A stretch of DNA of 29,626 bases from Candidatus Omnitrophota bacterium (GCA_013203315.1 JABMQJ010000010.1:1-29626), one strand, 5' to 3'. Positions 1 through 29,626 are shown, numbered from the stretch's first letter. A program made the numbers and translations. The notes: generated by a model from the letters alone, not told the origin.

Positions 1-894
1 AGCCTACCCGGACACAGATTCTTGAAAACGACTCTGGACTACAGCCATCTGTTAAAAGGTATTTTGTTTTGCGGAAAATGCGGGAGTTATTTTGTATCAA
101 CACACGCTCGTGGCAAAATGGGAAATAAGTTTTATTATTATGAGTGTAGCAGAGCAAGACAAAAACTCGGATGCGATACTAAACGCATATCAGCAACATC
201 ATTTGACCGGGCGGTTATTGACTTTTTAGGCAGAGCGTCCAAAGATCAGAATATTATTATCAATGCCGTTGGGAACGCTATGAAACACTCCTCAACCCAG
301 CTCGATAAATATGACAAGGAAATACGCCAGTTAAAGAAAAAGCTCGACAAAGCCAAAGACTCTGCCGATAAATTGCTTAACCTTGCTATAGAAAAAGTAA
401 TCACCAAAGGAAGAACTTATACCGAGAAAATGGACGCACTTGAAACCGAAATCATAGTGCTTGAAGATAAACTCGGAAAAGCCCAAGCCCGAAGAAAAGC
501 CGCTGAGATGACCGCTAACTCGAATGAATACCTGCACGCAAACCTACAGCTTGCCATGAGATACCTCGATCAAGCCCCGCCAGACGCCCAAATTGCCCTT
601 CTAAAGGCACTTATCAAGATACTCAAGGTTTATGACGACCATGTGAAGATGGAAATGTTTATAAACGAACCGGACGGCGAGATCGTGCAGAACTTACCGC
701 TGAAGGAACCCCAAAAACAGCGAACCCCGCTCCTTCTTGAGGAACAGGGTTCGACTGAGCGTCAACAATGGCGGAGAGGGAGGGATTTGAACCCTCGGAG
801 GCAGCAAAACCACCTCGGCGGCTTAGCAAGCCGCTCGTTTCAGCCACTCACGCACCTCTCCGAATTTTCACGTTTCTTTTTAAAAAATTCCTGA
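1..894 (+). CDS. Large serine recombinase, C-terminal part (zinc ribbon + coiled coil); 5' end outside window
   Basis: Frame is open from base 1. Contains the LLKGILFCGKCG...YYECSR...C zinc-ribbon motif followed by a long coiled coil, typical of large serine recombinases. The ORF runs antisense through the tRNA (WRRGRDLNPR). Confidence 0.85.
   Translation, partial: SLPGHRFLKTTLDYSHLLKGILFCGKCGSYFVSTHARGKMGNKFYYYECSRARQKLGCDTKRISATSFDRAVIDFLGRASKDQNIIINAVGNAMKHSSTQLDKYDKEIRQLKKKLDKAKDSADKLLNLAIEKVITKGRTYTEKMDALETEIIVLEDKLGKAQARRKAAEMTANSNEYLHANLQLAMRYLDQAPPDAQIALLKALIKILKVYDDHVKMEMFINEPDGEIVQNLPLKEPQKQRTPLLLEEQGSTERQQWRRGRDLNPRRQQNHLGGLASRSFQPLTHLSEFSRFFLKNS
713..753 (-). terminator. Probable intrinsic terminator downstream of tRNA-Ser
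   Basis: Imperfect hairpin CGAACCC...GGGTTCG (721-753), 15 nt past the tRNA CCA, followed on the minus strand by CTGTTTTT. Confidence 0.6.
769..861 (-). tRNA. tRNA-Ser(GCT)
   Basis: Minus strand reads GGAGAGGTGCGTGAGTGGCTGAAACGAGCGGCTTGCTAAGCCGCC...GGTTCAAATCCCTCCCTCTCCGCCA. Anticodon arm GCGGC-TT-GCT-AA-GCCGC, long variable arm, encoded CCA, 93 nt. Confidence 0.97.
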
Positions 895-7110: not shown

Positions 7111-8814
7111 CTAGCTCACGTCCATGGTAGTAGCAAGGACCTCATCCAGGGATGTAAGCCCGGCGCGAACCTTTTCCAGGCCGTCAAGCCTCAGGGACTT
7201 CATGCCTTTTTTTTCTATTAAAAACTTCTTTATAGAGCTCATGTCTTCTTTTTTTTCAATCATAGTCTGAATGTCTCTATCTACGCACATGATCTCAAAA
7301 ATAGCGACTCTGCCCATAAACCCGCGGTTTTTGCATGCATCGCAGCCTTTGGGTTTATATATTTTCGTGCCCTCAAGCTTATAGTCTTTAACTGTTTTTG
7401 CGTCTACCTTTACGAGTTCTTTACATTGCGGGCACAGTTTTCTGACCAGTCTCTGGGCGATTATCATGTTAAGCGTTGAGGCTAGAAGAAAAGGTTCTAT
7501 TCCGAAATCTAAAAGGCGTGAAATCGACCCGACAGAGTCATTCGTGTGCAACGTGCTTAAAACAAGCCTTCCTACCAGGGCCGAACGCACGCATATCTCG
7601 GCGGTCTCCAAGTCTCTTACCTCACCTACCATGATTATATCCGGGTCTTGCCTTAGGAAGGTTCGTAATCCACGTGCAAAATCCAATCCGATTTGCGGCA
7701 TTGCCTGGACCTGGTTAGCGCCCGCTATCCTGTATTCCACGGGGTCTTCTATTGTTATAATGTTTTTTTCCGGAGATTTTATTTCGTTTAGGAGACAATA
7801 AAGTGTTGTAGTCTTGCCGCTTCCCGTAGGCCCTGTGAGAAACACAAGCCCGTTTGGCTTATGTATATGGCTTGAAACCTTTTTCTGGTCTTCCTTATTT
7901 AAGTTTATGGTGCTGAGATTAAAATTTACCTGCTCTTTATCCAGTATTCTTATCGTAAGTTTTTCACCGTAAATGGTAGGGATCGTGGAAACGCGGAAGT
8001 CGATATTTCTTTTATCTATCTTTGTCATGAACCCGCCGTCTTGCGGAAGCCTTTTTTCGGCTATATCGAGGTGTGATAGTATTTTTATCCTGGATACGAG
8101 GGGCGCTATCATGTTTTTTGAAGGCGCGCTTTTCTCATACAAAATACCATCCACCCTGAACCGCACCACCACTTTTTCCTCCTGGGGTTCAACGTGTATA
8201 TCGCTAGCCTTTTCCCTCACAGCGTCCTGCATCATGAGGTTTACCATTTTTATTACAGGCGCTTCCGCGGCTTTCGATTTTAATTCATCTACGGTTTCTT
8301 CCTCGGCCCTCCACGCCGCCTGTCCGGCCACGACTGACTCTTTAGTGTCAAACACCCCCTTGTGCAGATACAATCTATCGATGCCGATTAGTATATCCGA
8401 CTTCGTGGTGCAATTAATCAAAAGATCCATCCTGGCTATTTTTTTAATATTGTCGATAACCACGAAATTAAGCGGATCCCACACGGCTACCGACAGATAT
8501 TTTGATGTTTTCGAAAGAGGTAATACCATGTTGGTTCTTGCAACCCTCTCGTCTATAAGTTTATCCAGGCTTTGGTCAAAGCTTATACTTAAAGATCCGT
8601 CCGCGAGTGAGAGATATTTTATGCCGAGCTTCCTGCTTATGGAAAGGCAAAGCCCCTCCTCAGAAAGATAGCCAAGCCCTATAAGGGTTTCACCTAAGGG
8701 TTTGTGATCTTTGGTTTTTTGCTGCAAATTCAGGGCTTCTTCAAGCTGTTCTTTCGTGACAAGGCCTTCTTCCAGTAAAATTTCGCCTAGTTTTTTTCTG
8801 ACAACTTTTACCAT
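7111..8814 (-). CDS. pilB: PilB/GspE assembly ATPase
   Basis: N-terminal KKLGEILLEEGLVT (MshEN-like), ASDIH, Walker A GPTGSGKTT, TIEDPVEY, LRQDPDIIMVGE, LSTLHTND and CxxC pairs. Start moved to ATG 8814, which has a GAGG RBS and avoids overlap with the secretin. Confidence 0.93.
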   Translation of the reverse strand: MVKVVRKKLGEILLEEGLVTKEQLEEALNLQQKTKDHKPLGETLIGLGYLSEEGLCLSISRKLGIKYLSLADGSLSISFDQSLDKLIDERVARTNMVLPLSKTSKYLSVAVWDPLNFVVIDNIKKIARMDLLINCTTKSDILIGIDRLYLHKGVFDTKESVVAGQAAWRAEEETVDELKSKAAEAPVIKMVNLMMQDAVREKASDIHVEPQEEKVVVRFRVDGILYEKSAPSKNMIAPLVSRIKILSHLDIAEKRLPQDGGFMTKIDKRNIDFRVSTIPTIYGEKLTIRILDKEQVNFNLSTINLNKEDQKKVSSHIHKPNGLVFLTGPTGSGKTTTLYCLLNEIKSPEKNIITIEDPVEYRIAGANQVQAMPQIGLDFARGLRTFLRQDPDIIMVGEVRDLETAEICVRSALVGRLVLSTLHTNDSVGSISRLLDFGIEPFLLASTLNMIIAQRLVRKLCPQCKELVKVDAKTVKDYKLEGTKIYKPKGCDACKNRGFMGRVAIFEIMCVDRDIQTMIEKKEDMSSIKKFLIEKKGMKSLRLDGLEKVRAGLTSLDEVLATTMDVS

Positions 8815-8830
8815 AACAGTTACCTCATCT

Positions 8831-10396
8831 TTATCGGTTGTATTTCTCAAGCGTATCGCGGATGGCGCGATCGCGCTGTGCCACTTCCGGCGGCATAATA
8901 TACTGATCTTCTCTCTTTTTAACAATGTGCGGCGTAATAAATATCAAGAGCTCCGTATCATCACCTCTTTTATACGATGATTTAAATGCCTCACCGAAAA
9001 AAGGTATATCGCCGAGAAACGGGACCTTTCTTATTGTTTTAAAATTGTCCGTTTGTATAAGCCCGCCTATCACAACCGTATCGCCGTCTTTAACAAGCAC
9101 CGTGCACGAGGCGCTTCGTACCTGCGGATCCAGGAATTGCGTGCTGAAAAATGTAGATGTTTGCGCTCTCGATACAGATGGTTCTAAATACATAAAAACT
9201 TGGCCTTTCGCATTGGCCTGGGGCGTTACTTTTAGCACTATCCCTGTTTCAACGCGTTCGGCTTTGCTTAAAACCTGGTCCCCTTCGCCGATAGTTGTGC
9301 TTTCCACGCCTATTGCCGTATTTGCCGATACCTTTATAACTGCCGGTTGATTGTTAAGGGTCATTATTTTGGGGCGGGAAAGATATTTTGTATCCTCGTC
9401 GTTAGATATCAATTTCAAAATAACTTCTGTGTTATTTGCCGTAATCGTTCCGTAATTGAAAAGGGCCGCATTTGAGAGCAGCTGGTCGTCGAAAGTTTGC
9501 TTTATCCACCATTCCGGAAACGGAAACCCTACTGGCACTTGCAGTTTTTGTGATTCATCAGAATCGGCATCTATGCCGTATTTAAAACCGAGTGTTTCGG
9601 TAAGCGACCCGTATTCCATGCCGATTCTTTTAAGCGCTGAGACTGTTGTTTCAACTATTTCCACCTGAATCATGATCTGCGGCGGCTCGACATCAAGTTC
9701 TTTTATGATAGCTTCGATAGCCTTGATATTCTCGGGAATCTCGGTAATAATGAGGCTGTTTGTTGGCTTATCCGCTATAATTTTGCCGTATTTAGTGAGA
9801 AGGCTCGAAACAATGTCAATTATGGTCTTACCTTGTGTTGCTTGCGGCATTTCAGAGCCTGCGCTGGACGCTAAGCCACCTTCGCCTGACCCGCCCATTT
9901 CCGTAATCGGAAACGCGCCTCCGGTGGAAGCAAAACCTACGTCTTCAGCCGGCATGGTCAGGCTATATGCCTGGATATAGTGTAGCTTTATCACCTTTGT
10001 TATAGTTTTTATTTCTTCGGTGCCGGATGGTTTTATTAAAAAGACGTCTCCTTTTTGCTTTTCATAGACGAGTCCGTTTGATTTCAGGATGGAACTCAGG
10101 GCTTCATCTACTGAGACGTCACTAAGATAAACTGTTACTTTCTTACCTTCAATAACTTCGCTTGCTATGAAATTGGCTCCGGTCTGCCTTGAAAAAGCTT
10201 TCAGTATATCTTTGAGCTCGGCATTTTCGAAATCAAGCGACACCCTTCTTTCCTCCATGCTTGTAATTTGTCCTGCATCACCGGCCATGGCTTCACCGGG
10301 AGGAGGCCCAATACCGGTAAGTTCCTGGGTATAACCCGTAGGCTCTGTCATTAAGAAAACTAGAGAAGTTAATATAATATAAAATTTTATTTTCAT
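8831..10396 (-). CDS. Secretin (PilQ/GspD family)
   Basis: Signal peptide, VSLDFENAELKDIL N0 domain, LDVEPPQIMIQVEIVE, GIVLKVTPQ and KVPFLGDIPFFG motifs. Confidence 0.92.
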   Translation of the reverse strand: MKIKFYIILTSLVFLMTEPTGYTQELTGIGPPPGEAMAGDAGQITSMEERRVSLDFENAELKDILKAFSRQTGANFIASEVIEGKKVTVYLSDVSVDEALSSILKSNGLVYEKQKGDVFLIKPSGTEEIKTITKVIKLHYIQAYSLTMPAEDVGFASTGGAFPITEMGGSGEGGLASSAGSEMPQATQGKTIIDIVSSLLTKYGKIIADKPTNSLIITEIPENIKAIEAIIKELDVEPPQIMIQVEIVETTVSALKRIGMEYGSLTETLGFKYGIDADSDESQKLQVPVGFPFPEWWIKQTFDDQLLSNAALFNYGTITANNTEVILKLISNDEDTKYLSRPKIMTLNNQPAVIKVSANTAIGVESTTIGEGDQVLSKAERVETGIVLKVTPQANAKGQVFMYLEPSVSRAQTSTFFSTQFLDPQVRSASCTVLVKDGDTVVIGGLIQTDNFKTIRKVPFLGDIPFFGEAFKSSYKRGDDTELLIFITPHIVKKREDQYIMPPEVAQRDRAIRDTLEKYNR

Positions 10397-11686: not shown

Positions 11687-13228
11687 CTATTGCAGAAGAA
11701 TCTCAAATTCCGTAACTTCCTTCTCGAGGAGGTTTTTTTTCCTCACCGAAATAAGCTTAACTTCCTTGAAACCGCTCATCATGTTTTTATCGTTACCGAT
11801 ATTTTCCAGTATGCTATTTATTACGACAATCCCCGCTTCTGTCGGGGCGTAAATGGCTCCTTCGATCGTAAGCGCTGGTTTACCATTTTTACTGATAGGG
11901 TTTCTGAAATCAATGACGTTTATCCATGAGAGCGGGGCGATGTCTTTCCCAAGTTCATTAAGTTTTTTCGTTATGTAAATCCTGTCCGAAAACACTTTAT
12001 GTATAAAGTCTGCTTTTTCTTCGGTAATATCTTCGTAGTATGTTATTTCATCGCGCGATGCGCCTGAGCTTGCGATGCCGGAGGCTTTAAAATACTTTTT
12101 TATTTCTTTTGTCAGGCTTTCTATTTTTTTGGCTTGCAGGAAATTTACGCCTGCTAACAGAATGTGCAGTGCCAGAATGCCGCATAAAATAATCCCGGCT
12201 TTTGCCGCTACGGGTTTATATATGCAGGGATCCTGCTCCGCTATTTCTCTGGGGGCAAGATTAAGGAAAGGTTCTCCCACGGCCTGACGCAGGAGAGAAA
12301 TCGCGGGAAGAAATCTATCCCGGGTTTCGTCGTTTTTTTCCTTGAATTTGAAATTAGAAAATTTTACCCTTTCTATCGTCACCCCAAAATCGTCACCGGT
12401 TATTCCTTCATTGAGAGAATAACTGAATCCGGAAATAAATATTTTATCAACCTCGCGCTTTGCTTCTTTCTTAATGTACTCAATGGTGTGCAGCACATCT
12501 GTTTCAATCGCTCCCCAGATATCTTTCAAAAGCGGGTATTTCATTTCGGTAGTCTTAAATTCATCCTCACCGGTTATAATGTTTACGCTCTTAAAAAAAT
12601 AGGGATAACGGTCTACTACACCCGTTATTACTATTTCATTGGATGGTTCGTAATGAACCGAGATATATGCTTTTTCTTTTTCCAGCTTCTGCTCGGAGTC
12701 CAGAATTCTGGCGATAAGTACTGGTGTAGGTATTATGACAGACGGCAGGATTTTTTTCTCCTGGTGATATTTTATCAGGGTATTTATATTTTTCGATTCT
12801 GACGCTACGAAGAGGACTTCCTGCGATCCGGATTTTTTGTCGCACTTTTTAAATCCAAATGCCAGATCCTCTATGGCGTAAGGAATGTATTTTTGCGCCT
12901 CGAATACAACTACCTTTTCCAGCTCATTATCCATGACCTGTTTGAAGAAAAAGCGGCGCAGTAACAAAAACTCGTCTTTTAGATTAAGGGCAATCTTTTC
13001 CGGTTTTTCTTTTTCGAATGCCTTGGAGAAAATCCTATCAAGTTCGGCTTTTGCTTCCGGTTGGGTTAGGTCTTTTACGTTTTTCAAAACCGGGTATCTC
13101 TGCATGGAGGAAATACGCACCCCGCCCAGGGTAACTTCACCCTTTACTATATCGACAAAATCTTCGCTGAGATAAACAGCGGTGCCTGAAAGTAGTAACT
13201 TTTTTATATTATCGTATATTCCTGCCAT
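11687..13228 (-). CDS. PilM-PilN-like fusion protein
   Basis: N-terminal PilM-like region (FEAQKYIPYAIEDLAFGF), then FLNLAP (INLLP-like) plus TM plus PilN-like domain (SWINVI...LTIEG). Confidence 0.7.
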   Translation of the reverse strand: MAGIYDNIKKLLLSGTAVYLSEDFVDIVKGEVTLGGVRISSMQRYPVLKNVKDLTQPEAKAELDRIFSKAFEKEKPEKIALNLKDEFLLLRRFFFKQVMDNELEKVVVFEAQKYIPYAIEDLAFGFKKCDKKSGSQEVLFVASESKNINTLIKYHQEKKILPSVIIPTPVLIARILDSEQKLEKEKAYISVHYEPSNEIVITGVVDRYPYFFKSVNIITGEDEFKTTEMKYPLLKDIWGAIETDVLHTIEYIKKEAKREVDKIFISGFSYSLNEGITGDDFGVTIERVKFSNFKFKEKNDETRDRFLPAISLLRQAVGEPFLNLAPREIAEQDPCIYKPVAAKAGIILCGILALHILLAGVNFLQAKKIESLTKEIKKYFKASGIASSGASRDEITYYEDITEEKADFIHKVFSDRIYITKKLNELGKDIAPLSWINVIDFRNPISKNGKPALTIEGAIYAPTEAGIVVINSILENIGNDKNMMSGFKEVKLISVRKKNLLEKEVTEFEILLQ

Positions 13229-13237
13229 AGCCTTTTA

Positions 13238-13954
13238 TTAAAATCGAACCTTATCGCCTCTTTTTATGCCAATGTTTACCATGGATTTGTGAAGCGCTTT
13301 TGTAATCGCCGCGTCATTACCCACTCTTTCCACCGAGACCTGCGCCAGCATCTTTCTTCCTCTAAAAATGTAGAGTACGTCGCCCTCTCTTACACCTTTT
13401 CGTTTTCCCGTATTTACCACTATAAAATCATAACGCTTATTAACCTCTAAAACCTTGCCCTTGTTTTTTAGCTTTATCGGCTTTACTTTAATGGGCGCGA
13501 GCGTTACATCGCTTGAGGAAGTTTCTTTATTCCATGGTTTTCCGGCAATTACCGATAATTTTTCTATAAGCTGGGTATTTTCGGTTTTGTATTCTTCGAT
13601 TTTATTTTTAAGTTCGTCTATTTTCTCGCCCTTATCAAAGGCTGCTTTTTCGGCAGTTGAAAGATTTTTACCGATTTCGTCCACCTCGTATTCGAGTTGT
13701 TCGATATTGCTTTCGTATTCATTCATCTTGCCGAGCAGAAGCTCGTTTTCCTCTTTGTATATTCCCAATTTGGTTTCAAGGGTTCTTCTTACTGCGGAGA
13801 AGTCGGCTATTTTGCTTGTCAGAAATGAAACTTCGCCTTTAACTTGATCTAAGTGGCTTTTAGCGCTTTCGTTTAACTCGTATAGATACCACGTAAGAGA
13901 AGCCAGGGCGCATATGAGGATGACGGCAACAATTCGCCATATGTTAAATTTCAT
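13238..13954 (-). CDS. Membrane-anchored coiled-coil protein with C-terminal beta domain
   Basis: N-terminal TM, long heptad region, C-terminal GKVLEV...VVNTGKRKGVREGD (FlgT C-terminal-like). Confidence 0.65.
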   Translation of the reverse strand: MKFNIWRIVAVILICALASLTWYLYELNESAKSHLDQVKGEVSFLTSKIADFSAVRRTLETKLGIYKEENELLLGKMNEYESNIEQLEYEVDEIGKNLSTAEKAAFDKGEKIDELKNKIEEYKTENTQLIEKLSVIAGKPWNKETSSSDVTLAPIKVKPIKLKNKGKVLEVNKRYDFIVVNTGKRKGVREGDVLYIFRGRKMLAQVSVERVGNDAAITKALHKSMVNIGIKRGDKVRF

Positions 13955-15396
13955 TTTATTTTCTCCTTGGTTTCCTTTTGCCTCTTCCCGACATCGCGCA
14001 AGATACTTATGAATATTTCGGTTAATTTTGGATCCATCTTAGTTCCGGCGAAACTCCTCATGGTTTTTATGGCTTCGGGGGCTGTCATGGCTTTTCTATA
14101 CGGCCTATCCGTCGTAATTGCGTCATACATGTCCGCTATGGAGAGCATCCGTGAGGTAAGCGGTATCTCCTCACCTTTTAAGCCGTCCGGGTAGCCTGTC
14201 CCATCATAGCTCTCATGGTGGTGCCTGACGAGTTCGCTTAATTTCGACATGGAGCGAAGCGGTTTTAAAATATTCTCCCCGATAACCGAATGGTGTTTCA
14301 TGATTTCGTATTCCTCGGGCGTAAATTTTCCTTCTTTTTTTAATATCTCGTCGCGTATCCCGAGCTTGCCGAGATCATGCAGCACCGCTCCGCCTTTTAG
14401 TACCTTTTTTGTCTCTTCGTTTATATTCAGTCTATCGGCTAATTTCATAACATACCTACCTACTCTTTCAAGGTGCCCTGCGCTATAAGCGTCTTTTGCT
14501 TCAACGGCGCGGGCTAAGGTAAGTAACGTTTCGTAATATGTTTTTTCCAGGTCCCTGCTTAATTTTAAATTCTCTATAGCTATGGCTAGTTGTCCTGCTA
14601 AATTTTCGAGAAGGAAAAGGTCTTCTGTGTCTATTTTTCCGGTATCCTTCAGGTTGCTGACACCCAGAACGCCGATAACAACGCTTTTTTCCATGATCGG
14701 AACGCAGAGCATGTTATTGTAAGAGAGGTATTCTTCTTCGGGCGGTATGTTCATTTCTTTTGATCCGCCTTTTTTTATAACCATGGGTTTTGAGGCCGTT
14801 ATAGCAAAACTTACAACGCCCTTATCCGAAGGAAGCTCCATGTTTTCGGATATGTCTTTTTGCGGGCCGGAATACGCTCTCAGAAGTAAATGTTTCATTT
14901 CGGAATCATACAGAGCCAGAAACGAACCCTCCGCTATCAGCACCTTTTTCATGGTTTGGACTATGAGCTTAAAAAGGGCATCTGTTTTGTGCGTCGAGGT
15001 TATCGCGTATCCGATCTTCTGGAAAAGTTCGCGGGTTAAACTGTGGGAAGATTCCAGGTCTTTTATTTTACTTTCCAGGTCACGCGTGATCCTGTTAAAA
15101 GCCATGGCCAGGTCCTTTAATTCGTTACCGCCAAAGGTTTCCGCGCCCCCCGAGGTGAGCTTAATGTCTTTGGTAAGGCCCGTGATTGACGTAATAATTT
15201 TTTTAAGCACAAATCCGCCGAAAGCCCCGGAAAGTATTACACAGAAAACAACAATTCCAATGTATGCTGCCGAGAATGCCGCGGCTTTTTGCGAAAGCAA
15301 CATAAATATAAGGTAAGAGGCGAGGGTGATCGGAATTACAAAAAGGAAGAAAAATATAAGGGCAGACTTAGTATGTAAAGTATCTCTTTTTTCCAT
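13951..15396 (-). CDS. Membrane GAF + HD-GYP domain protein (putative cyclic dinucleotide phosphodiesterase)
   Basis: Two TM segments, HAMP-like linker, GAF (MLCVPI...GVL), HDLGK, HHESYDGTGYPDGL and DRPYR motifs. Confidence 0.9.
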   Translation of the reverse strand: MEKRDTLHTKSALIFFFLFVIPITLASYLIFMLLSQKAAAFSAAYIGIVVFCVILSGAFGGFVLKKIITSITGLTKDIKLTSGGAETFGGNELKDLAMAFNRITRDLESKIKDLESSHSLTRELFQKIGYAITSTHKTDALFKLIVQTMKKVLIAEGSFLALYDSEMKHLLLRAYSGPQKDISENMELPSDKGVVSFAITASKPMVIKKGGSKEMNIPPEEEYLSYNNMLCVPIMEKSVVIGVLGVSNLKDTGKIDTEDLFLLENLAGQLAIAIENLKLSRDLEKTYYETLLTLARAVEAKDAYSAGHLERVGRYVMKLADRLNINEETKKVLKGGAVLHDLGKLGIRDEILKKEGKFTPEEYEIMKHHSVIGENILKPLRSMSKLSELVRHHHESYDGTGYPDGLKGEEIPLTSRMLSIADMYDAITTDRPYRKAMTAPEAIKTMRSFAGTKMDPKLTEIFISILRDVGKRQKETKEKIK

Positions 15397-22123: not shown

Positions 22124-23149
22124 CTATTTCTGCGGTTCGATGATTACCTTGATGGATTCACCGGCTTCGGCTACGAGACGGAACCCAACGCCAGCCTCTT
22201 TTAAGCTGAGCCGGTGCGTAATCAGTTTGCGTACGGGTATGTGGCCTTTGTGAATTAACTCCAGCGCTCTTGCGTTATCCAGTGGCGCGCTTCCGTATGA
22301 AGTCATTAGTTTTATTTCTTTGCGCCAGAATTCATTGACCGGAACCGGCAATTCGACGCCGGGGTCGGTAGCTGCGAAAAATAAAACTGTGCCTCCACGA
22401 TCCACGCACTGCAGGGCTTGCTTGAAAGCAGAAAATGCCCCGGTGCATACGATCACAAGGTCTGCAAGTTTTCCGTTATTAATTTTGCGTAAGGAATTGA
22501 GAATATCGTCCTTGGCATTAAGGCTTGCGTCGGCACCTAAATCTTTTGCCATTTTCAGGCGATATTTATTGACGTCTGTAGTAATGATTTTACCGGCGCC
22601 GGAGTGGCGAGCGAGTAGCAGGTGGAGTAATCCTGAAATGCCACTTCCGAGAATAAGTAGAGTCTGGCCCGGTTTTAGCCCGGCTAATCTCTCTCCCCGG
22701 ACAACGCAACCAAGCGGCTCGATAAACGTCCCTTCTTCAAATAAAACTTCTTTCGGCAGTAAAAATACACCGCACTCCACGTTTATCTTCGGAACACGTA
22801 TATATTCGGCAAATCCGCCGGGAAAAAAGTTTGTCGCATGTAAAGTCTCGCATGCGGTATGGTGATCATTCACGCAGTAATGGCAGGTATTGCACGGAAC
22901 GTGGTGAGAAACAAAAACCCTATCGCCTATCTTATAACGCTCTTCACCCTCCCCCACACCTACAATTTCTCCGGCAATTTCATGCCCGAGGACAATAGGC
23001 GCTTTTTTAACGCGATACCATTCGAGAACGTCGCTACCGCAGATACCGCTTGCTATTACTTTAACCAGTAGTTCGCCGGGGCCGATCGTTGGTTTTGCTG
23101 CTTCCTCAAGCCGGACATCGCTATTTTTGTAGTACGTCGCTACGCGCAT
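22124..23149 (-). CDS. Zinc-dependent alcohol/polyol dehydrogenase (MDR family)
   Basis: GICGSD, GHE, CxxCxxC...C and GSGISG motifs. Confidence 0.9.
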   Translation of the reverse strand: MRVATYYKNSDVRLEEAAKPTIGPGELLVKVIASGICGSDVLEWYRVKKAPIVLGHEIAGEIVGVGEGEERYKIGDRVFVSHHVPCNTCHYCVNDHHTACETLHATNFFPGGFAEYIRVPKINVECGVFLLPKEVLFEEGTFIEPLGCVVRGERLAGLKPGQTLLILGSGISGLLHLLLARHSGAGKIITTDVNKYRLKMAKDLGADASLNAKDDILNSLRKINNGKLADLVIVCTGAFSAFKQALQCVDRGGTVLFFAATDPGVELPVPVNEFWRKEIKLMTSYGSAPLDNARALELIHKGHIPVRKLITHRLSLKEAGVGFRLVAEAGESIKVIIEPQK

Positions 23150-23946
23150 GTCCTTACGCTACTCTTTGTTTCATTAAATAACTCGTATGCTTCTTTAGCA
23201 GTCGCTTTTTTGTGGATAATTGCCTGCAAGGCCCGAGCCATGCCAACAGGGTTTGGATTCTGCCAAACATTTCTTCCTAAATTTATCCCTATGGCGCCTT
23301 TTTGCATGCCGTCGCAAACGAAATCAAACACTTCAAGCTCTGTTTTGCATTTCGGGCCGCCCGCCATAACTACGGGAACCGGACAACCGTTTACAACCTT
23401 GTCAAAATCCTTATCACACCAGTAGGTTTTTACAACACGCGCTCCGAGTTCTGCGGCGATACGGCAAGCCAAGCCAAGATACCTGGCATCGCGCTTGCCC
23501 ATTTCTTTACCCACAGCCGTAACAGCCATTACAGGGATCCCGTAATTCTCGCACTCATTGACAAGTTTACTGAGATTTGAAAGCGTTTCCTTTTCGTAAT
23601 TACTTCCAACGAAAATAGAAATGCCGACAGCCGCTACGTTGAGCCTAATAATTTCCTCGATAGAAGTTGTGATAACTTCATTCGCCAGATCCTTACCCAC
23701 TACGCTTGTGCCACCGGATACGCGTAAAATTATGGGCTTACTGTTTGCCGGATCCACGCATGAACGAAGCACCCCTCTTGTGACGAAAAGTGCGTCGCAG
23801 AAAGGCAAAAGCGGTTTTATGGTTTCGCCGGGTTTCTCCAAAGAGCTCGTCGGCCCCTGAAAATACCCGTGATCAATCGGCATAAAAAAACAATGTCCGT
23901 CGGGTTGAATAAGTCTGCTCAAACGATTTTTTATTCCCCAATCCAT
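23140..23946 (-). CDS. lsrF: LsrF-type class I aldolase/thiolase
   Basis: MDWGIKNRL, DHGYFQGPT, AAELGARVVKTY, AGGPK and GRNVWQ motifs. Confidence 0.88.
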   Translation of the reverse strand: MDWGIKNRLSRLIQPDGHCFFMPIDHGYFQGPTSSLEKPGETIKPLLPFCDALFVTRGVLRSCVDPANSKPIILRVSGGTSVVGKDLANEVITTSIEEIIRLNVAAVGISIFVGSNYEKETLSNLSKLVNECENYGIPVMAVTAVGKEMGKRDARYLGLACRIAAELGARVVKTYWCDKDFDKVVNGCPVPVVMAGGPKCKTELEVFDFVCDGMQKGAIGINLGRNVWQNPNPVGMARALQAIIHKKATAKEAYELFNETKSSVRTCA

Positions 23947-24153
23947 TTTATTTTCCTCCTTATTTTTGTCTCCGGAACCGGAGCCCTATAGCCTAATAAG
24001 CTATGTGGCCTAAACGTATTATATTCTATTCTCCGGCGTTCCACAAGCACTTTTGCCTCAATCTAGTGACTTTGAACTTTTTCCTTGCCATCTTAGGCCC
24101 TTTTCTACTACCATACTATAATACAAACTTTGGTTATGAAATGCGAATCAGAA

Positions 24154-24566
24154 ATGAAAAAAACAGAACTACATAAATTCTCAAACACGCACTACGTCCC
24201 CGGAAGCAGGGCAAAAAGAATCCTCTGGCTGGTGTCAAGTATCGTGTTTTTCAAGTCTTCTGTTCCCTACCCGTATATTTTTAAACTTTTTATTCTGCGG
24301 CTTTTTGGCGCAAAAGTAGGCAAAAATATTGTTATAAAGTCTTCAAATTAATATTAAATATCCATGGTTTCTGGAGATAGGAACCAATGTCTGGATAGGC
24401 GAAGGCGCCTGGATAGGCGCCAGATACGTTGTTTGCCCGGGTGTTAAGGTGCGGCAATCATTCTGTTTTAACCGCGGGGTCAGTGGCGACGCATGATTTG
24501 GAACCGTACAAAATTTATCAGGGAAATCCGGCTACCTATAAAAGAAACAGGGTTATTAAAGATTAA
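24154..24566 (+). pseudogene. wcaF: WcaF-like exopolysaccharide acetyltransferase pseudogene
   Basis: Three frame segments: ...LRLFGAKVGKNIVIKS / INIKYPWFLEIGTNVWIGEGAWIGARYVVCPGVKV / GNHSVLTAGSVATHDLEPYKIYQGNPA...*. Two frameshifts, and the middle hexapeptide region is missing. Confidence 0.85.
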
Positions 24567-24652
24567 AAAGAGCCCGTTCTTCCAACCTGTTTAATTTAAA
24601 ATCGTTAAATCCATTTTGTTTTAGAAATTCTTTCGGATGGAAAAACAGTGAA

Positions 24653-25288
24653 TTATTCAGTATCTTTATAAGCAATTATATGCGCTGCCAGCGGTAGAAA
24701 CATCCTTGGCATTAATTCACGTATTGGTTGCGCAAGAGGAAATTTAGTTTTATTGATTATGCGCACTAGCAAATTTGTAGGATTTCCAAAACCAACCCCG
24801 ATAATTTTGTAACCTCTTTTATGAAAATAAGTCCGGGGAAAATAGCTTTTATGAGCTTCGAATTCATTATATCCCCCGATTTGATTCAAGCCACCTCGAA
24901 AAAAAGGCCAGTTTGGCACTGATATGATAATTCTTTTTTTTGCGGCTTTTTCAAGAATATTAATAACCTCTTCTGCCTTATCCTGTTCTATATGCTCTAT
25001 AAACTCAATTGCCAAAACAGTATCCCATACATCCTGTAAAGGCGAAGGCATTACCTGATGCCACACTTTGCGATAGCAATTACGTTGAGAACTAAGTTTT
25101 ACATTTGGCGGAAAAGCATCAAACCCGTCAACATACTGGTGCTCGGTAGTCAATCCGGCTTCAAATGAATTGCATTGAATAAGGCAACCCCAACGTCCAT
25201 AGCCGCAGCCGGCATCAAGTATAGTTTTGGTATCTCTGTGGATCAGTGGTACAACAATCGGGTCTAAATAGCAAGGGGAAGAACTCAT
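24653..25288 (-). CDS. Class I SAM-dependent methyltransferase
   Basis: ILDAGCGYG motif I, EFIEH, ISVPN. Confidence 0.85.
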   Translation of the reverse strand: MSSSPCYLDPIVVPLIHRDTKTILDAGCGYGRWGCLIQCNSFEAGLTTEHQYVDGFDAFPPNVKLSSQRNCYRKVWHQVMPSPLQDVWDTVLAIEFIEHIEQDKAEEVINILEKAAKKRIIISVPNWPFFRGGLNQIGGYNEFEAHKSYFPRTYFHKRGYKIIGVGFGNPTNLLVRIINKTKFPLAQPIRELMPRMFLPLAAHIIAYKDTE

Positions 25289-25469
25289 TTATTAAACCCT
25301 TTTTGTTTTGACAATGTCATCTGCATATTTTTATTCAATCTATTCTTACCTCTTATTCAGACACTACCCATCAATTCAAAATACCCGTTTCACCACGCTT
25401 TAGCATTATAATCTCGCTATTTCACATTGCGATTAACAGGCTCCGGATAAATACGACTAATCGGTAAAC

Positions 25470-25581
25470 AAGTTATAACACAAGTGGTTTATTGTCAAGG
25501 GATTAGATAGTCTCGTTGTTACCCGATTGTTCCCGATGCTTCCCATTGTTTTGGGGTTGGATGGGCACCATCTGGGTACTA
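25470..25581 (-). repeat. Partial copy (R0) of the 168-bp cassette-junction element, lacking the tRNA core
   Basis: AAGTTA-N17-TGTCAAGGGATTA, then TGGGCACCA-tc-TGGGTACTA starting 69 bp after TGTCAA, the same offset as in the full copies. Confidence 0.75.
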
Positions 25582-25624
25582 AAAAATTTATAATTATAAT
25601 TGCAAATAAATTTCTGATTTGTTA

Positions 25625-26395
25625 CTATTTATTCTTTAATACAAAAACAGGCTGAGGTCCTGCACCAGTACCATAATCTTTGTCTAGCATATAATCATTA
25701 TATCCAAACGAATCTACGACTTCCCATGTTGCCAACAATAACGGTAGTCTGATTCTTCCATATCTTCTATGCACATTCCAAACCACAGCATCCGCTCCAA
25801 CAGGAACTGCTAAAAAAAATATCCCATTTGGTTTAAGAATATATTTCATCTTTTTCATTGCTTCTAAATCACCTGCAGGATTTAGCGTGTCGCCATATCT
25901 ACCTAACTCATCATGCTCAAAAGAAGAAATTGAAAAAGCTACATCGTATCTTTCGCTATTTCTATTATACTCTTCAACAGTTAATGCTTTTACCCGCGTA
26001 TCCTGTACAATAATTCTATTATATTCTATTATCGTTGGCTTTCCGCCATAAGCCAGACAAATACTTTCATATCTGATCTCATCAGAACCCATTACCGCAA
26101 CTTTTTTTGCTTGAATATTGTATTTTTCTAAAGCCTGATAAAGCCAAGAATCTGTTATGCCATAACAAAATGTCTTTTTTCTTTTAACCTCTTCTATGCA
26201 TGAATCAATCTGCTCCTTTGTATAGATTAAAGGGTTATCCGGGGTATAAGAGTCGTCTCGATATTCATATTCAACTTTGATTTTGCCATTTAATGTATAT
26301 CCATTATACAAACTTATAGGGTTTTTTTTAGGTGGTTTTTTCTTTTGCAATTTCTCAACTCCATTATTTTTTTTACATACTCTGTAAATTATCAC
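25625..26395 (-). CDS. DUF268-like (methyltransferase-fold) protein; start uncertain
   Basis: VMGS...YE, FSISSFEHDELGRYGDTLNPAGDL, LKPNG..FLAVPVG.D...WNVHRRYG motifs. Confidence 0.75.
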   Translation of the reverse strand: MIIYRVCKKNNGVEKLQKKKPPKKNPISLYNGYTLNGKIKVEYEYRDDSYTPDNPLIYTKEQIDSCIEEVKRKKTFCYGITDSWLYQALEKYNIQAKKVAVMGSDEIRYESICLAYGGKPTIIEYNRIIVQDTRVKALTVEEYNRNSERYDVAFSISSFEHDELGRYGDTLNPAGDLEAMKKMKYILKPNGIFFLAVPVGADAVVWNVHRRYGRIRLPLLLATWEVVDSFGYNDYMLDKDYGTGAGPQPVFVLKNK

Positions 26396-26425
26396 CTTTA
26401 AATAAAATATGGAACGTAACTATAC

Positions 26426-26593
26426 TGGCGGAGAGGCAGGGATTCGTTTATGTGTGTTTTCGTAACTCTCCGTCGGACAATAGGTTATAACAGAAGTCTT
26501 TTATTGTCAAGCAATTAAGGATTCTATAGTTTTTCTAATTTTATCTCGGTTTGGTTCAAATATTCCCCTTGATTGGTCCCCAAATGGTCCCCA
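26426..26593 (-). repeat. 168-bp junction element R1 (att-like: tRNA-Ser 3' end + arm)
   Basis: TGGCGGAGAGGCAGGGATTCG at 26426; CTCTCCGTC at +40; AGGTTA at +56; TGTCAA at +79; TGGTCCCCA at +148 and +159. Confidence 0.9.
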
Positions 26594-26790
26594 TTGATAT
26601 ATGTTGCATAGGAAGATCTGCCTTTTCTTTGTCTTCTTTTGAGCCATTTTTCTATCAGGTGAACATCAAATCTTATGCTACTACCTATCTTAAAGTGTAG
26701 CACATAACCGTAATGAACCTACTTATAAACTGTGGAGAGCTTGGCTTGAAGCAAATCACTCAGTTGTTTGGGTATTAGTAATCTGTTCAT
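26524..26790 (-). pseudogene. Excisionase-like (HTH_17/Xis) gene with in-frame TAG
   Basis: Hand translation: MNRLLIPKQLSDLLQAKLSTVYK*VHYGYVLHFKIGSSIRFDVHLIEKWLKRR...; TAG at 26721-26719 lies at the usual Trp of the TVYxW motif. Not in the ORF track. Confidence 0.8.
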
Positions 26791-26891
26791 TTTATAGCCA
26801 TTTTATCCATTGGTAACACTTACCGTAGCTACCCTTAGAAAATATGCTCTGGAGCTAGCTGAACATCTATCATTTTATTGCCATTCGAGTA

Positions 26892-27710
26892 TTAAAGAAG
26901 CATTGTTTTACTCATGTCTCTAAAATAATCAAGCTTAAGTTCAAAATATGGATAAATGATATAGTCCTTAATTAATGGCTTTTTAGGCATTTGCTCTATA
27001 GCTTTTTTATCCCACGATTCCGGGTTAAGGTTCCATTTTTTCAGAAAAAGTTCTTTCGAAATCCAATGGAATTGCATAGATTCCATATGACTCTTATCCT
27101 TCCTGGTAGCTCCGGGTAATTGATCTTCTCTTATAGGTATATTTACTTCCGGGTTATGCAATCGGCCATGGTGCCCGTCATTTATCGACGAATATTCCTT
27201 GTTATGAAGAAACTGCCTCAAAAAGTAATCCGCCTCCTGGTAACCTATACCGCAAAACCTTTCATCCCAAAGACCAACTCGATCTATTGCCGATGGTTTA
27301 TAACTATGGAATGCATCTCCCGCGCCGAAGGAAATAAAGGAATATTTCTTATGTAAAGAAATTATATTTTTGACCCAATCCGTTTTAAAAAGAACGTCAT
27401 CTTGTGTGCAAATTAATAAATCACAATCTGCTTTTTTTATGTCTTTAAAACCATTGATAATAGCCTGATTCCAGTTTCTCGAAAGATGCCCTGTCGAGAA
27501 ATCCGGCCGCAAAACATTATTATATATCTCTATGTTGCGATTTGAAGTATTCAACTCATTTTGCATATTTCCCTTACCGATCGTACCACAATTGTTTATG
27601 ATATTTATCTGATAATTGTATTTGATTAAATCGCTTCTCAAAAGACTATTAATATTTTCGAACAACTTTTTGCGATTCTTATATGTTGTGATAAATATTT
27701 TTATCTTCAT
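26892..27710 (-). CDS. GT-A fold glycosyltransferase (GT2-like)
   Basis: IFITTYKN, LSRNWNQAI, TQDD (DxD-like), VGLWDERF..GYQEADY motifs; AAGGAG RBS. Confidence 0.8.
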   Translation of the reverse strand: MKIKIFITTYKNRKKLFENINSLLRSDLIKYNYQINIINNCGTIGKGNMQNELNTSNRNIEIYNNVLRPDFSTGHLSRNWNQAIINGFKDIKKADCDLLICTQDDVLFKTDWVKNIISLHKKYSFISFGAGDAFHSYKPSAIDRVGLWDERFCGIGYQEADYFLRQFLHNKEYSSINDGHHGRLHNPEVNIPIREDQLPGATRKDKSHMESMQFHWISKELFLKKWNLNPESWDKKAIEQMPKKPLIKDYIIYPYFELKLDYFRDMSKTMLL

Positions 27711-27887
27711 ATCCGAATAACTCCTTTATTTTGTTGACTGTTAAGACCTGATCATTATCATTTTACAACCTTGATTTTGTTGATGGGGGTAATAATTGGT
27801 TCGAACTTTATTTTAAAAGAGAGCCGATTGATTTTCGCGACGGAAGTTAACCTCCGTCATTATTTAAAATACGCTCCGTATCAAGTA

Positions 27888-28055
27888 TGGCGGAGAGGCA
27901 GGGATTCTTTTATGTGTGTTTTCGTAACTCTCCGTCGGATAATAGGTTATAACATAACTGCTTTGTTGTCAAGGAATTAGCGATTCCATACAGTTTCGTT
28001 TCTTTTCGTCTGTTTTCGTCCTTATTCGCTTTAGATGGTCCCAGAATGGTCCCAA
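27888..28055 (-). repeat. 168-bp junction element R2
   Basis: TGGCGGAGAGGCAGGGATTC at 27888; same landmarks at +40, +56 and +79; TGGTCCCA at +148 and +159. Confidence 0.9.
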
Positions 28056-28062
28056 AAAAGGT

Positions 28063-28170
28063 TTACTTCTTGCACTTGCAATAAGTATCGTGCATGCATT
28101 TTACAAAAGTTTTAACAATTGCAAAAATAACTATCAATAATGCTATTTGTCCAAATAATCCCCAACTCAT
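28063..28170 (-). CDS. 35-aa single-TM small protein
   Basis: MSWGLFGQIALLIVIFAIVKTFVKCMHDTYCKCKK preceded by AAGGAGGT-aaat-ATG. Confidence 0.65.
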   Translation of the reverse strand: MSWGLFGQIALLIVIFAIVKTFVKCMHDTYCKCKK

Positions 28171-28339
28171 ATTTACCTCCTTTTTGTCGCCTTTTATGGG
28201 CACCGTTTTGGCGCTAAATTCAAGGGGTAACGGGGCCAACCTGCTTGGCGCCACCCTGCTATATCGTAGGGTGACACTTTTTAGGACAGTCCTTTGCTTC
28301 TCAACATAGCGTTATCGATGAAAGATCTTATCCACAGCG

Positions 28340-29242
28340 TTACTTAGTAGCTGTAAAAAAAATCCAGTTAAGATGATTGTCACCTGGGCCAACGGGCCTT
28401 ATCCAGTATTCGAAGTCCCTAAACCTTATCTCCTCGAGATCTTTTTTTAATTGTTCTGGATTCTCTACTCTGGTGTCACATGCTTTATTAGTTTGTAATG
28501 CCGCATAGCAATTCTCATAGTAGCCAACAGTAGCCGGGCACTTCTCGCCATACCCCATTTGAATCGATATTCTTCCGCCATTCTTCAACGATCGATACAT
28601 GGACTCAAATATACTATATCTGGTCTCCCAGACACATATATGTTGCATAGTAATTGAAGAGAAAATAAAATCATAATAATCAGCTAGGACATCGCCAAGA
28701 TTCTTTCCGGATGTAACATAAAAACGCGACTCTTTAGTAAAATTGTGATAGGCGAAGTTTTTCTTTGCATTCATGATGCCTTCGGAAGATATATCAGCCC
28801 CATCTATCCTCTTAAAGGACTTATTATATTTAATAATGTTTCTTCCAGGCCCACATCCGAAATCCAAGGCTGTTTTTTCCTTATATCCGTCATCTATATA
28901 TTTCATCATATAATCATCATAATCAGCCCATTTATTATGTAGATCATATGACCCTACAACAGTGTCCTTTTTTACTGATCTGTAATAATCTGCAATCTTG
29001 TAGTGGTAACGATAATATAACTTTTGCGCATATGCATACCTGTCCTTTCTCTTAAGGCTATAATAGACCAATATATCCCATATGGATCTTCTTGAATTCA
29101 AAAATACAGACCTACCTAAGTTCGAGTAGACATTTCTTATGCCTTTGATTTTTTTAACTGCTTCATAAAGCGGCCTTATCTTTTTCAAATTGTTAATTAC
29201 TGAACTGGGTAGTATCGAGTATAACTTCTTGATCATTTTCAA
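28340..29242 (-). CDS. Class I SAM-dependent methyltransferase
   Basis: ALDFGCGPGR, GADIS, YDFIFSSITMQHI and LKNGG motifs; start at 29242 (TTG) or 29236 (ATG). Confidence 0.88.
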   Translation of the reverse strand: MKMIKKLYSILPSSVINNLKKIRPLYEAVKKIKGIRNVYSNLGRSVFLNSRRSIWDILVYYSLKRKDRYAYAQKLYYRYHYKIADYYRSVKKDTVVGSYDLHNKWADYDDYMMKYIDDGYKEKTALDFGCGPGRNIIKYNKSFKRIDGADISSEGIMNAKKNFAYHNFTKESRFYVTSGKNLGDVLADYYDFIFSSITMQHICVWETRYSIFESMYRSLKNGGRISIQMGYGEKCPATVGYYENCYAALQTNKACDTRVENPEQLKKDLEEIRFRDFEYWIRPVGPGDNHLNWIFFTATK

Positions 29243-29329
29243 ATATCCTTTGCCTATTTCGGTTTACCATCCAAAGAATATCTATTCTTGCCTATTCTAA
29301 CCTGCTTAGATTTGTCAGGTTAAATGAAC

Positions 29330-29497
29330 TGGCGGAGAGGCAGGGAGTCTTCTATGTGTATTTCCGCAACTCTCCGTCGAATAACAGGTTACAGCATAAG
29401 TCTTTTAATGTCAAGGAATTAAGCTGTGCGGATGTTTACATTTGGTTACATTTGTATGCAGATGTTACTGCATTGGGTGGGCATCATTTGGGCATCA
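29330..29497 (-). repeat. 168-bp junction element R3
   Basis: TGGCGGAGAGGCAGGGAGTC at 29330; same landmarks at +40, +56 and +79; TGGGCATCA at +148 and +159. Confidence 0.9.
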
Positions 29498-29501
29498 AAC
29501 G

Positions 29502-29626
29502 CTATGTTTTTGAAAGGATTTTTTTGTATACGGCAATATAGTTTTCGGCCATTTTTTCTCTGGAATAATTTTCTTCTATGTGCTTGCGGCAATTTTGGGG
29601 TTTTATTTTATCTATATTCTTTGTCG
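29502..29626 (-). CDS. C-terminus of a probable GT4 glycosyltransferase (5' part outside window)
   Basis: Hand translation TKNIDKIKPQNCRKHIEENYSREKMAENYIAVYKKILSKT* matches the typical GT4 terminal helix pattern (CR...E..[FY]S...M...Y...Y). Confidence 0.65.
   Translation of the reverse strand, partial: TKNIDKIKPQNCRKHIEENYSREKMAENYIAVYKKILSKT

Follow-up and report, generated by a model that had tools for sequence, protein, structure and literature searches.

What assembles short stretches of unrelated genes into a tandem array behind fragments of a single tRNA gene? The locus in question lies near the right end of a 29,626-nt stretch of Candidatus Omnitrophota bacterium (GCA_013203315.1, JABMQJ010000010.1:1-29626; hereafter the window), which is the entire contig C8 of a 1.5-Mb assembly of 32 contigs that is 97% complete. 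There, an element of ~168 nt with a tRNA-Ser-like end occurs in three full copies and one partial copy, with small genes for glycan enzymes between them. A first-pass annotation had read these units as minimal cassettes inserted serially by an integrase acting in trans, forming a cassette-collecting system distinct from integrons. By sequence comparison, we find the junction to consist of the P arm and core of an ordinary attP, and none of the arrays inspected has a dedicated integrase beside it; the array is a further case of a known tRNA gene-gain hot spot, not a new integron-like system or recombination principle. The probable explanation is tandem accretion, at tRNA-Ser(GGA), of small tyrosine-integrase elements that have decayed to integrase-less islets resembling cis-mobilizable elements (CIMEs).

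A repeat search recovered a 138-nt family, whose members at 26398-26535, 27860-27997 (82%) and 29302-29439 (71%) are spaced 1462 and 1442 nt apart, and a 46-nt sub-family that extends the repeat 1012 nt leftwards to 25461-25506. Copy 1, used as a blastn query against the whole genome, returned copies at E values of 2.7e-35, 1.2e-25 and 7.4e-5. On contig C12 it also hit a fifth copy of the element (38733-38827, 86%, E 2.9e-26) and, at 34191-34222, a true tRNA gene at its 3' end. Both searches agree with the elements first noticed at 26426, 27888 and 29330 and with the partial copy ~1012 bp to their left. No internal gap interrupts the alignment of the three full copies between a pair of 7-mers and the tRNA-like end, so that the landmarks do fall at identical offsets; similarity among copies is 71–86%. 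As had been described, the payloads are mutually unrelated, every one of them is encoded on the minus strand (the direction of the tRNA), and their stop codons lie ~4, 7 and 43 nt from the element when this is taken as 168 nt. GC content is 0.33–0.38 across the array region (24 to 29 kb) and 0.41–0.49 in the remaining contig. A Pfam scan of all open reading frames (ORFs) in the units found no integrase or transfer genes in any of them. The genome holds three PF00589 genes, two of Xer size (contigs C25 and C17) and one encoding a 359-aa integrase at the start of C2, with no match on C8 or near the C12 tRNA; the two scans bear out the statement that no unit contains an integrase.

What is the source of the tRNA-like end? 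An intact tRNA-Ser ending CCCTGCCTCTCCGCCA had been predicted, and ARAGORN locates it as tRNA-Ser(GGA) at C12:34123-34211, after tRNA-Ser(TGA) and tRNA-Ser(CGA). The core of the element is identical to the last 17–21 nt of this gene at four junctions of the genome (the three full window copies and the one on C12), an identity that upholds the view that site-specific integration produced the repeats as copies of the tRNA-Ser 3' end. Behind the C12 tRNA lies an integrase-less unit of 4.6 kb, whose cargo genes encode a fusion of methyltransferase and GT2, a separate methyltransferase and a membrane protein of PMT_2-like type. This unit ends in the fifth P arm and core, and further genes lie beyond it up to the contig end. 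The array is divided over two contigs, with the assembly gap inside it between C12 and C8, and the window is probably a distal part of the array behind the C12 tRNA-Ser(GGA). The expectation of an intact tRNA and further copies is borne out on C12, which has the tRNA and the fifth copy; C8 itself has no rightward extension, the window being the whole of it. C8 was joined to no other contig: among the open end frames of 8 of the 32 contigs (C8 and C12 included), none continues the GT4-type glycosyltransferase gene that is cut at the right end of the window, and a tblastn search of the genome with the neighbours of this gene in genome G001 (same genus) had a single match, which covers the final 39 residues of GT4 at the end of C8.

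At 8575-8985, G001 itself has two degenerate arm-plus-core copies whose cores end at 8764 and 8985, ~220 nt from one another. The interval between them is free of genes, and the 19 kb examined of that contig contain no tRNA. A full GT4 gene lies ~7 kb downstream of the two copies. Its product (Glycos_transf_1) matches the window at 29621-29505 by tblastn (92%), and its last 130 nt are 94% identical to window 29497-29626 by blastn; the homology ends a few nt past the GT4 stop codon, where the arm starts. Other long (>700-nt) aligned stretches between G001 and the window genome are 66–72% identical.

Read in the tRNA direction, the element comprises two 7-mers, ~45 variable nt, a conserved block (TAATTCCTTGACAATAAAAGA..TT.TGTTATAACCTATT), ~40 nt and the core. 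The 7-mers have an 11-nt period and form a GGGACCA pair in two copies, an ATGCCCA pair in two others and a GTACCCA/GTGCCCA pair in the partial copy, which has kept the pair and the block and lost the core. Exact paired 7-mers occur four times in the genome, always at copies of the element, where 0.18 are expected; chance origin is thus excluded, and we regard the words as putative integrase arm sites. A second type of arm also abuts the tRNA-Ser(GGA) core, with GGTGTTAAA twice at ~11 nt followed by a GGTTTTTGA-type block before the core. It is carried by small units of genomes G012, G003 and G070 (in G070 at 12582-14604) and is found as well on the P' side of the first G012 unit.

Which enzyme might use such a site? 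We aligned 15 copies of the P arm from 11 genomes, including the distal ends of integrase-bearing elements in G070 and G047, and found all 15 to be homologous from the 7-mer pair to the core; by blastn, the P arm is present in 8 of 60 relatives. In G070, the tRNA-Ser(GGA) gene is followed by an integrase (342 aa), SpoVG, DUF3987 and an HTH_17 Xis, with arm and core 8.9 kb from the tRNA. In G047, the order is tRNA-Ser(GGA), a 242-aa ORF, an integrase (343 aa), AbiV, an ion channel, NUDIX, an HTH_17 Xis and a lipase, with arm and core at 11.6 kb. The two integrases are 67% identical, despite coming from different families of the class. All genes of these autonomous elements are co-oriented with the tRNA, which accounts for payloads on a single strand in the window if such elements were their parents. 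Six elements of the integrase family, at tRNA-Ser(GGA), tRNA-Ser(CGA) or the transfer-messenger RNA (tmRNA) gene, have a 7-mer pair of the GTGCCCA or TTGCCCA type between the tRNA or tmRNA and int. Thus, the words occur in both arms, as for arm-type integrase sites.

The integrase family is widespread: a scan of one genome per species gave 79 loci, 43 of which have a tRNA-Ser gene just upstream of the match and in the same orientation (anticodons GCT 16, CGA 11, GGA 9, TGA 7); tRNA-Leu, Met, His or tmRNA were seen less often. Titles of the loci span several phyla, among them Omnitrophota, Zixibacteria and Ignavibacteria. Within the class, the cognate integrase (E<=1e-70) occurs in 11 of 251 genomes. 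It was not found in the window genome, with its gap in the array, and was absent from all nine searched genomes of the same family. Hence the tyrosine integrase that had been called for exists as a family using this site and arm in G070 and G047, its cognate in the window genome not having been found, and the proposal of one integrase serving all units in trans is doubtful, given that neighbouring arms differ (GGGACCA, ATGCCCA and GTGCCCA pairs). The C2 integrase was considered as the trans-acting enzyme and rejected, being only 30–32% identical to the cognate family and adjoining a fragment of another tRNA. At C2:1-1111, the frame of the 359-aa integrase stops 3 nt short of a tRNA gene of which the contig start leaves only the 5' part, and a series of small membrane ORFs follows the integrase; this locus is probably another integrated element.

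Similar arrays occur in relatives, where unit sizes were taken as core-to-core spacings. Integrase-less units stand in G012, a one-contig genome of the same family (3114, 1141, 1268 and 2272 bp), its congener G003 (1236 bp), G057 (6.6 and 1.36 kb), G038 (474 and 1098 bp), G009 (1.8 kb), G222 (1.6 kb) and G308 (234 bp). The G070 array begins with the 8.9-kb element, which holds its only integrase, and continues with units of 894, 723 and 1284 bp. At tRNA-Ser(GCT), which has the same 3' end, G388 has an integrase-less unit of 1.0 kb, and G093 has a 7.4-kb unit with an integrase at its far end. Arm copies with diverged cores are found in G008 and G023, 2.9–3.1 kb from the tRNA. Across the surveyed relatives, integrase-less units at tRNA-Ser measure 0.2–6.6 kb and only three units encode an integrase. 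G012 and G003 have in common one unit (NTP_transf_8, 86% aa identity) and a DEAD-helicase flank (93% aa); G012 has two extra units on the tRNA side of the common unit and one on its far side, each bounded by cores. As these differences fall exactly at cores, the array has changed by whole units within a genus. Units of the relatives carry toxin-antitoxin, defence and membrane genes as well as unknown ones; cargo of the glycan type is peculiar to the window genome.

Direct signs of decay come from the unit that runs from the core at 27888 to that at 26426. Its frame from 26790 scores 24.3–24.7 bits against HTH_17 (PF12728, cut-off 27 bits) when the stop is read as X; it is 48% identical over 61 aa to the G070 Xis, with the TAG codon aligned to Trp, and 34% identical to the G047 Xis. 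Because this broken xis is homologous to the Xis of autonomous elements, the unit is, on present sequence comparisons, a decayed descendant of such an element. It begins with the remnant of a serine-recombinase element and ends with an arm of the tyrosine-integrase type. The description of the units as minimal cassettes thus fails for this one at least, which comes close to what the first-pass annotation had named as grounds for abandoning its reading: units that are remnants of elements that each carried an integrase.

Taken together, these data suggest the following scheme. The 3' end of tRNA-Ser(GGA) would be an integration hot spot, at which small elements of one tyrosine-integrase family recombine a 17–21-nt attP core with the identical tRNA end. 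Parent elements would encode a ~342-aa integrase next to the tRNA and, towards the opposite end, an HTH_17 Xis, and their arm sites would be the paired 7-mers. Every insertion would restore the tRNA and displace older inserts outward, each insert terminating in its own copy of P arm and core. Integrase, P' arm and most backbone genes would then be deleted, so that P arm and core remain with one or two cargo genes and, in a single unit, a broken xis; the cargo retained in the window would be glycan-modifying enzymes. The resulting islets would be immobile alone and could at most be lost or excised with or by an incoming autonomous element, or via core-core recombination. Of this scheme, the sequences show the anatomy, the tRNA, the kinship of arm and xis with those of integrase-bearing elements, the failure to find the integrase in the window genome and the gain or loss of units at cores between relatives; the order of the insertion events, the arm-site role of the 7-mers and any present-day mobility are inferred.

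Are the units mobile today? Read evidence consisted of the assembled contigs (Logan) of four DNA runs from one study, all of which contain the stretch and three of which may be its source; these contigs break at repeats. Depth was even across the units in the four runs (12.2, 12.9 and 14.5 per unit in run X1), and no convincing excision joint was present in their contigs. The sides of the two candidate joints, 26446->29478 and 26511->29473, measure 21 and 25 nt, and both joints connect one copy of the repeat to another; they were treated as cross-matches.

Several observations weigh against accretion followed by decay. (i) The P' side of the window units has no 7-mer pairs, which makes lambda-type excision of single units doubtful. 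(ii) The PF00589 genome scan found no integrase pseudogene in any unit, so direct support for decay is limited to the unit with the broken xis. (iii) Very small units (0.2–1.5 kb) recur in many genomes, which looks more cassette-like than random deletion predicts. (iv) Units without an integrase have kept their P arms and cores in good condition, and the TTGACA-containing block is found in most of these arms and is absent from both integrase-bearing copies (G070 and G047), which hints at selection on the junction itself. Finally, the gap in the array could conceal an integrase.

Could the array be a true cassette system, in which P arm plus core is a sufficient site, single-gene circles are captured and shuffled at tRNA-Ser by an integrase in trans and the junctions give an outward promoter? 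Integrase-less units of 0.2–3 kb at tRNA-Ser in G012, G003, G038, G057, G070, G009, G222 and G308 speak for it, together with their co-oriented cargo, the whole-unit differences between congeneric genomes, the rarity of the cognate integrase (11 of 251 genomes) and the conserved TTGACA / TGTTATAAC block, which faces the next unit in most integrase-less copies. However, integrases stand beside arrays only within complete mobile elements, one unit shows decay in its broken xis and its remnant of a recombinase end, arm variants are unlike between neighbouring units and P' arm sites are missing; moreover, a promoter scan passes over the block, and depth is flat with no convincing joint. We consider such a system quite unlikely, and about equally unlikely the proposition that, in Omnitrophota and their relatives, P arm and core are a working cassette site at which a tRNA-Ser integrase in trans captures and reshuffles one-gene circles, with the TTGACA block selected as a promoter, the whole being an integron analogue of independent origin. 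The repeat also invites a reading without any link to mobile DNA, as the duplicated promoter or leader of a glycan operon or as a structured RNA with a tRNA-like 3' end, since each copy lies upstream of a minus-strand gene and contains TTGACA and a possible stem, GACGGAGAG/CTCTCCGCC. This reading is largely refuted, and we give it hardly any probability, because the same element ends integrase-plus-xis elements in relatives. In addition, an Rfam scan of 24000-29626 (E<=1) gave no match. The stem was rejected as a conserved structure: 76% of cells are paired, but 151 of 500 shuffles do equally well, only one cell is compensatory and several copies break the stem, leaving it without covariation support. 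The candidate promoters TTGACA-N15-TATAAC and TTGACA-N17-TAACCT were rejected too, being unlisted by a consensus scan in which promoter-like sites number 20, against 19.6 in shuffles; the conserved block as promoter is a weak possibility.

At the other extreme, the array could be a fossil of dead, fixed remnants, in which relatives differ by ordinary deletion or homologous recombination between repeats and no site-specific activity exists today. Cores that are intact over 17–21 nt at four junctions argue otherwise, as do the conservation of the arm across families of the class, the extra units of G012 on both sides of the unit it has in common with G003, and the autonomous elements of the family within the class. 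We hold this possibility to be unlikely, while recognizing that the cognate integrase was found neither in the window genome nor in the nine family genomes searched, that the distal copy is coreless, the copies only 71–86% alike and the xis broken, and that depth is even across the units in four samples. Accretion of autonomous elements followed by decay to islets is the explanation we prefer.

The array region is laid out in Table 1.

Table 1. The repeat array and its cargo at the right end of the window, listed from the contig end leftwards.
Feature	Position	Strand	Basis
GT4-type glycosyltransferase, 3' end, cut by contig end; cargo of next unit rightwards	29497..29626	-	frame read
P arm + core, copy 3: ATGCCCA-N4-ATGCCCA (29478-29495), conserved block, 17-nt core 29330-29346	29330..29495	-	alignment, blastn
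SAM-dependent methyltransferase, 300 aa, cargo	28340..29242	-	Pfam Methyltransf_25/11, E 1e-12
Small ORF, hydrophobic C-terminal half, no Pfam family	28063..28254	-	translation
P arm + core, copy 2: GGGACCA-N4-GGGACCA (28036-28053), 20-nt core 27888-27907	27888..28053	-	alignment, blastn
Remnant of serine-recombinase element immediately following core: solo copy of its ~105-nt terminal inverted repeat	27813..27887	-	blastn, alignment, translated match
GT2-like protein, 272 aa, cargo	26892..27710	-	weak Pfam PF00535
Excisionase (HTH_17) pseudogene, one in-frame TAG	26524..26790	-	PF12728 below cut-off; G070 Xis homology
P arm + core, copy 1: GGGACCA-N4-GGGACCA (26574-26591), 21-nt core 26426-26446	26426..26591	-	alignment, blastn
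DUF268 protein, 256 aa, methyltransferase-like cargo	25625..26395	-	Pfam PF03269, E 3.5e-28
Partial P arm: GTACCCA/GTGCCCA pair 25560-25579, conserved block 25461-25506, no tRNA-like core; degenerate distal array end	25461..25579	-	repeat search, blastn, alignment
Methyltransferase, 211 aa, downstream of partial copy, within low-GC stretch	24653..25288	-	Pfam Methyltransf_23

The GT2-like cargo protein has 806 homologues, some of them with PF00535, and its best non-self match is 53% identical; in tracing a donor, no match to it was found at E<=1e-25 among the other 150 class genomes. Just upstream of an arm, the part of the small ORF at window 28063-28170 (minus strand) specifies a hydrophobic peptide of 35 residues whose tail is rich in Cys and Lys; it has no family match. 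Left of the array (22124-23946) lies a zinc-ADH gene with a DeoC-type aldolase gene before it. A zinc-ADH gene is also found at 12650-14474 of G008, between tRNA-Ser(TGA) and tRNA-Ser(CGA) and with a 264-aa ORF before it; in view of this placement between tRNA-Ser genes, the stretch left of the partial copy may be old island DNA too.

The same tRNA end also adjoins an element of a third type, which may be an integrated mini-element or an invertible segment. About 85–105 nt are alike after the C12 tRNA, after the window core at 27888 and after one G070 core (window 27813-27887 against C12:34204-34299, 77% by blastn). The repeat sequence occurs in 12 of 200 other class genomes, in 7 of the 12 as an inverted pair ~1.5 kb apart. 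At the four paired loci examined (G128, G162, G127 and G158), a large serine recombinase gene (482–556 aa), antisense to the tRNA, lies between the repeats and is the sole gene of an element of ~1.6 kb. The ~105-nt inverted repeats are near-identical within a genome and different between genomes, and at three of these loci one repeat directly follows a tRNA gene (Ser-GGA, Ser-TGA or Ala-CGC). The far flank resembles an inverted tRNA 3' end (GTTCGAAC ... CCACCGCCA). The window genome has two solo copies only (27813-27887 and C12:34212-34299), both of which still match the recombinase C-terminus in translation. At its other end, the window begins (1-894, plus strand) within the C-terminal part of a large serine recombinase (Zn_ribbon_recom), whose frame runs antisense into tRNA-Ser(GCT) at 769-861 (minus strand). 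The layout is convergent, as in the tRNA-flanking serine-recombinase elements, and the G127 query gave no match there. Serine-recombinase islands at tRNA or tmRNA 3' ends are exemplified by the ssrA islands described in Dehalococcoides (PMC3146451). Two junctions of the window genome's array resemble them in bearing the end of a large-serine-recombinase element, one that occupies tRNA 3' ends in relatives; the main window repeat differs in belonging to the tyrosine-integrase family.

How does the array compare with other known systems? In a lambda-type attP, the core is identical to attB, arm-type repeats stand in the P and P' arms, and a small HTH protein serves as excisionase. The elements described here have a core equal to attB and an HTH Xis, and the autonomous ones have putative arm-type words on either side of the core, paired at a spacing of one helical turn; the window units have such pairs in the P arm and none on the P' side, and they differ further by a conserved 60-nt block between putative arm sites and core. 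Integrons consist of IntI, attI, attC cassettes (imperfect palindromes that fold as single strands) and a Pc promoter. Like them, the array contains short, co-oriented, recombinase-less units bounded by tyrosine-recombinase sites. Unlike them, it has no intI or attI beside it (no PF00589 match on C8 or near the C12 tRNA), its junctions combine a directly repeated tRNA 3' end with an attP arm, in place of folded attC sites, and its units would derive from decayed autonomous elements.

The closest parallels may be islands that are remnants themselves. CIMEs, as described for the ICESt1 type, have lost integration and transfer genes, keep att sites at a tRNA 3' end and stack in tandem (PMC5704250). 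The window units similarly lack integrase and transfer genes, are bounded by att repeats that equal the target tRNA at its 3' end and have autonomous relatives at the same site. However, the units of the window genome are far smaller (1.0–4.6 kb), most of them keep the P-arm side only, and the parent elements show no genes for conjugation. In the tycheposon islands described in Prochlorococcus, newcomers push older elements inward and leave partial tRNAs and remnants (bioRxiv 10.1101/2020.12.28.424599). Shared with the array are a streamlined genome, tyrosine-recombinase elements at tRNA genes, small cargo-bearing parents, partial tRNAs and degenerate remnants and, on the present scheme, displacement of older inserts; phylum and habitat differ, and the cargo here is glycan enzymes and not nutrient-uptake modules.

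The array shows accessory-gene gain through one tRNA-Ser hot spot in an uncultivated freshwater lineage with a small genome (~1.5 Mb), where the gained sugar methyltransferases and glycosyltransferases probably alter the cell surface. The hot spot is served by a widespread tRNA-Ser-specific integrase family whose attachment-site anatomy is now defined: a 17–21-nt core, paired 7-mers and Xis. Such a defined anatomy would permit systematic island calling in metagenome-assembled genomes, where repeats of this kind break assemblies.

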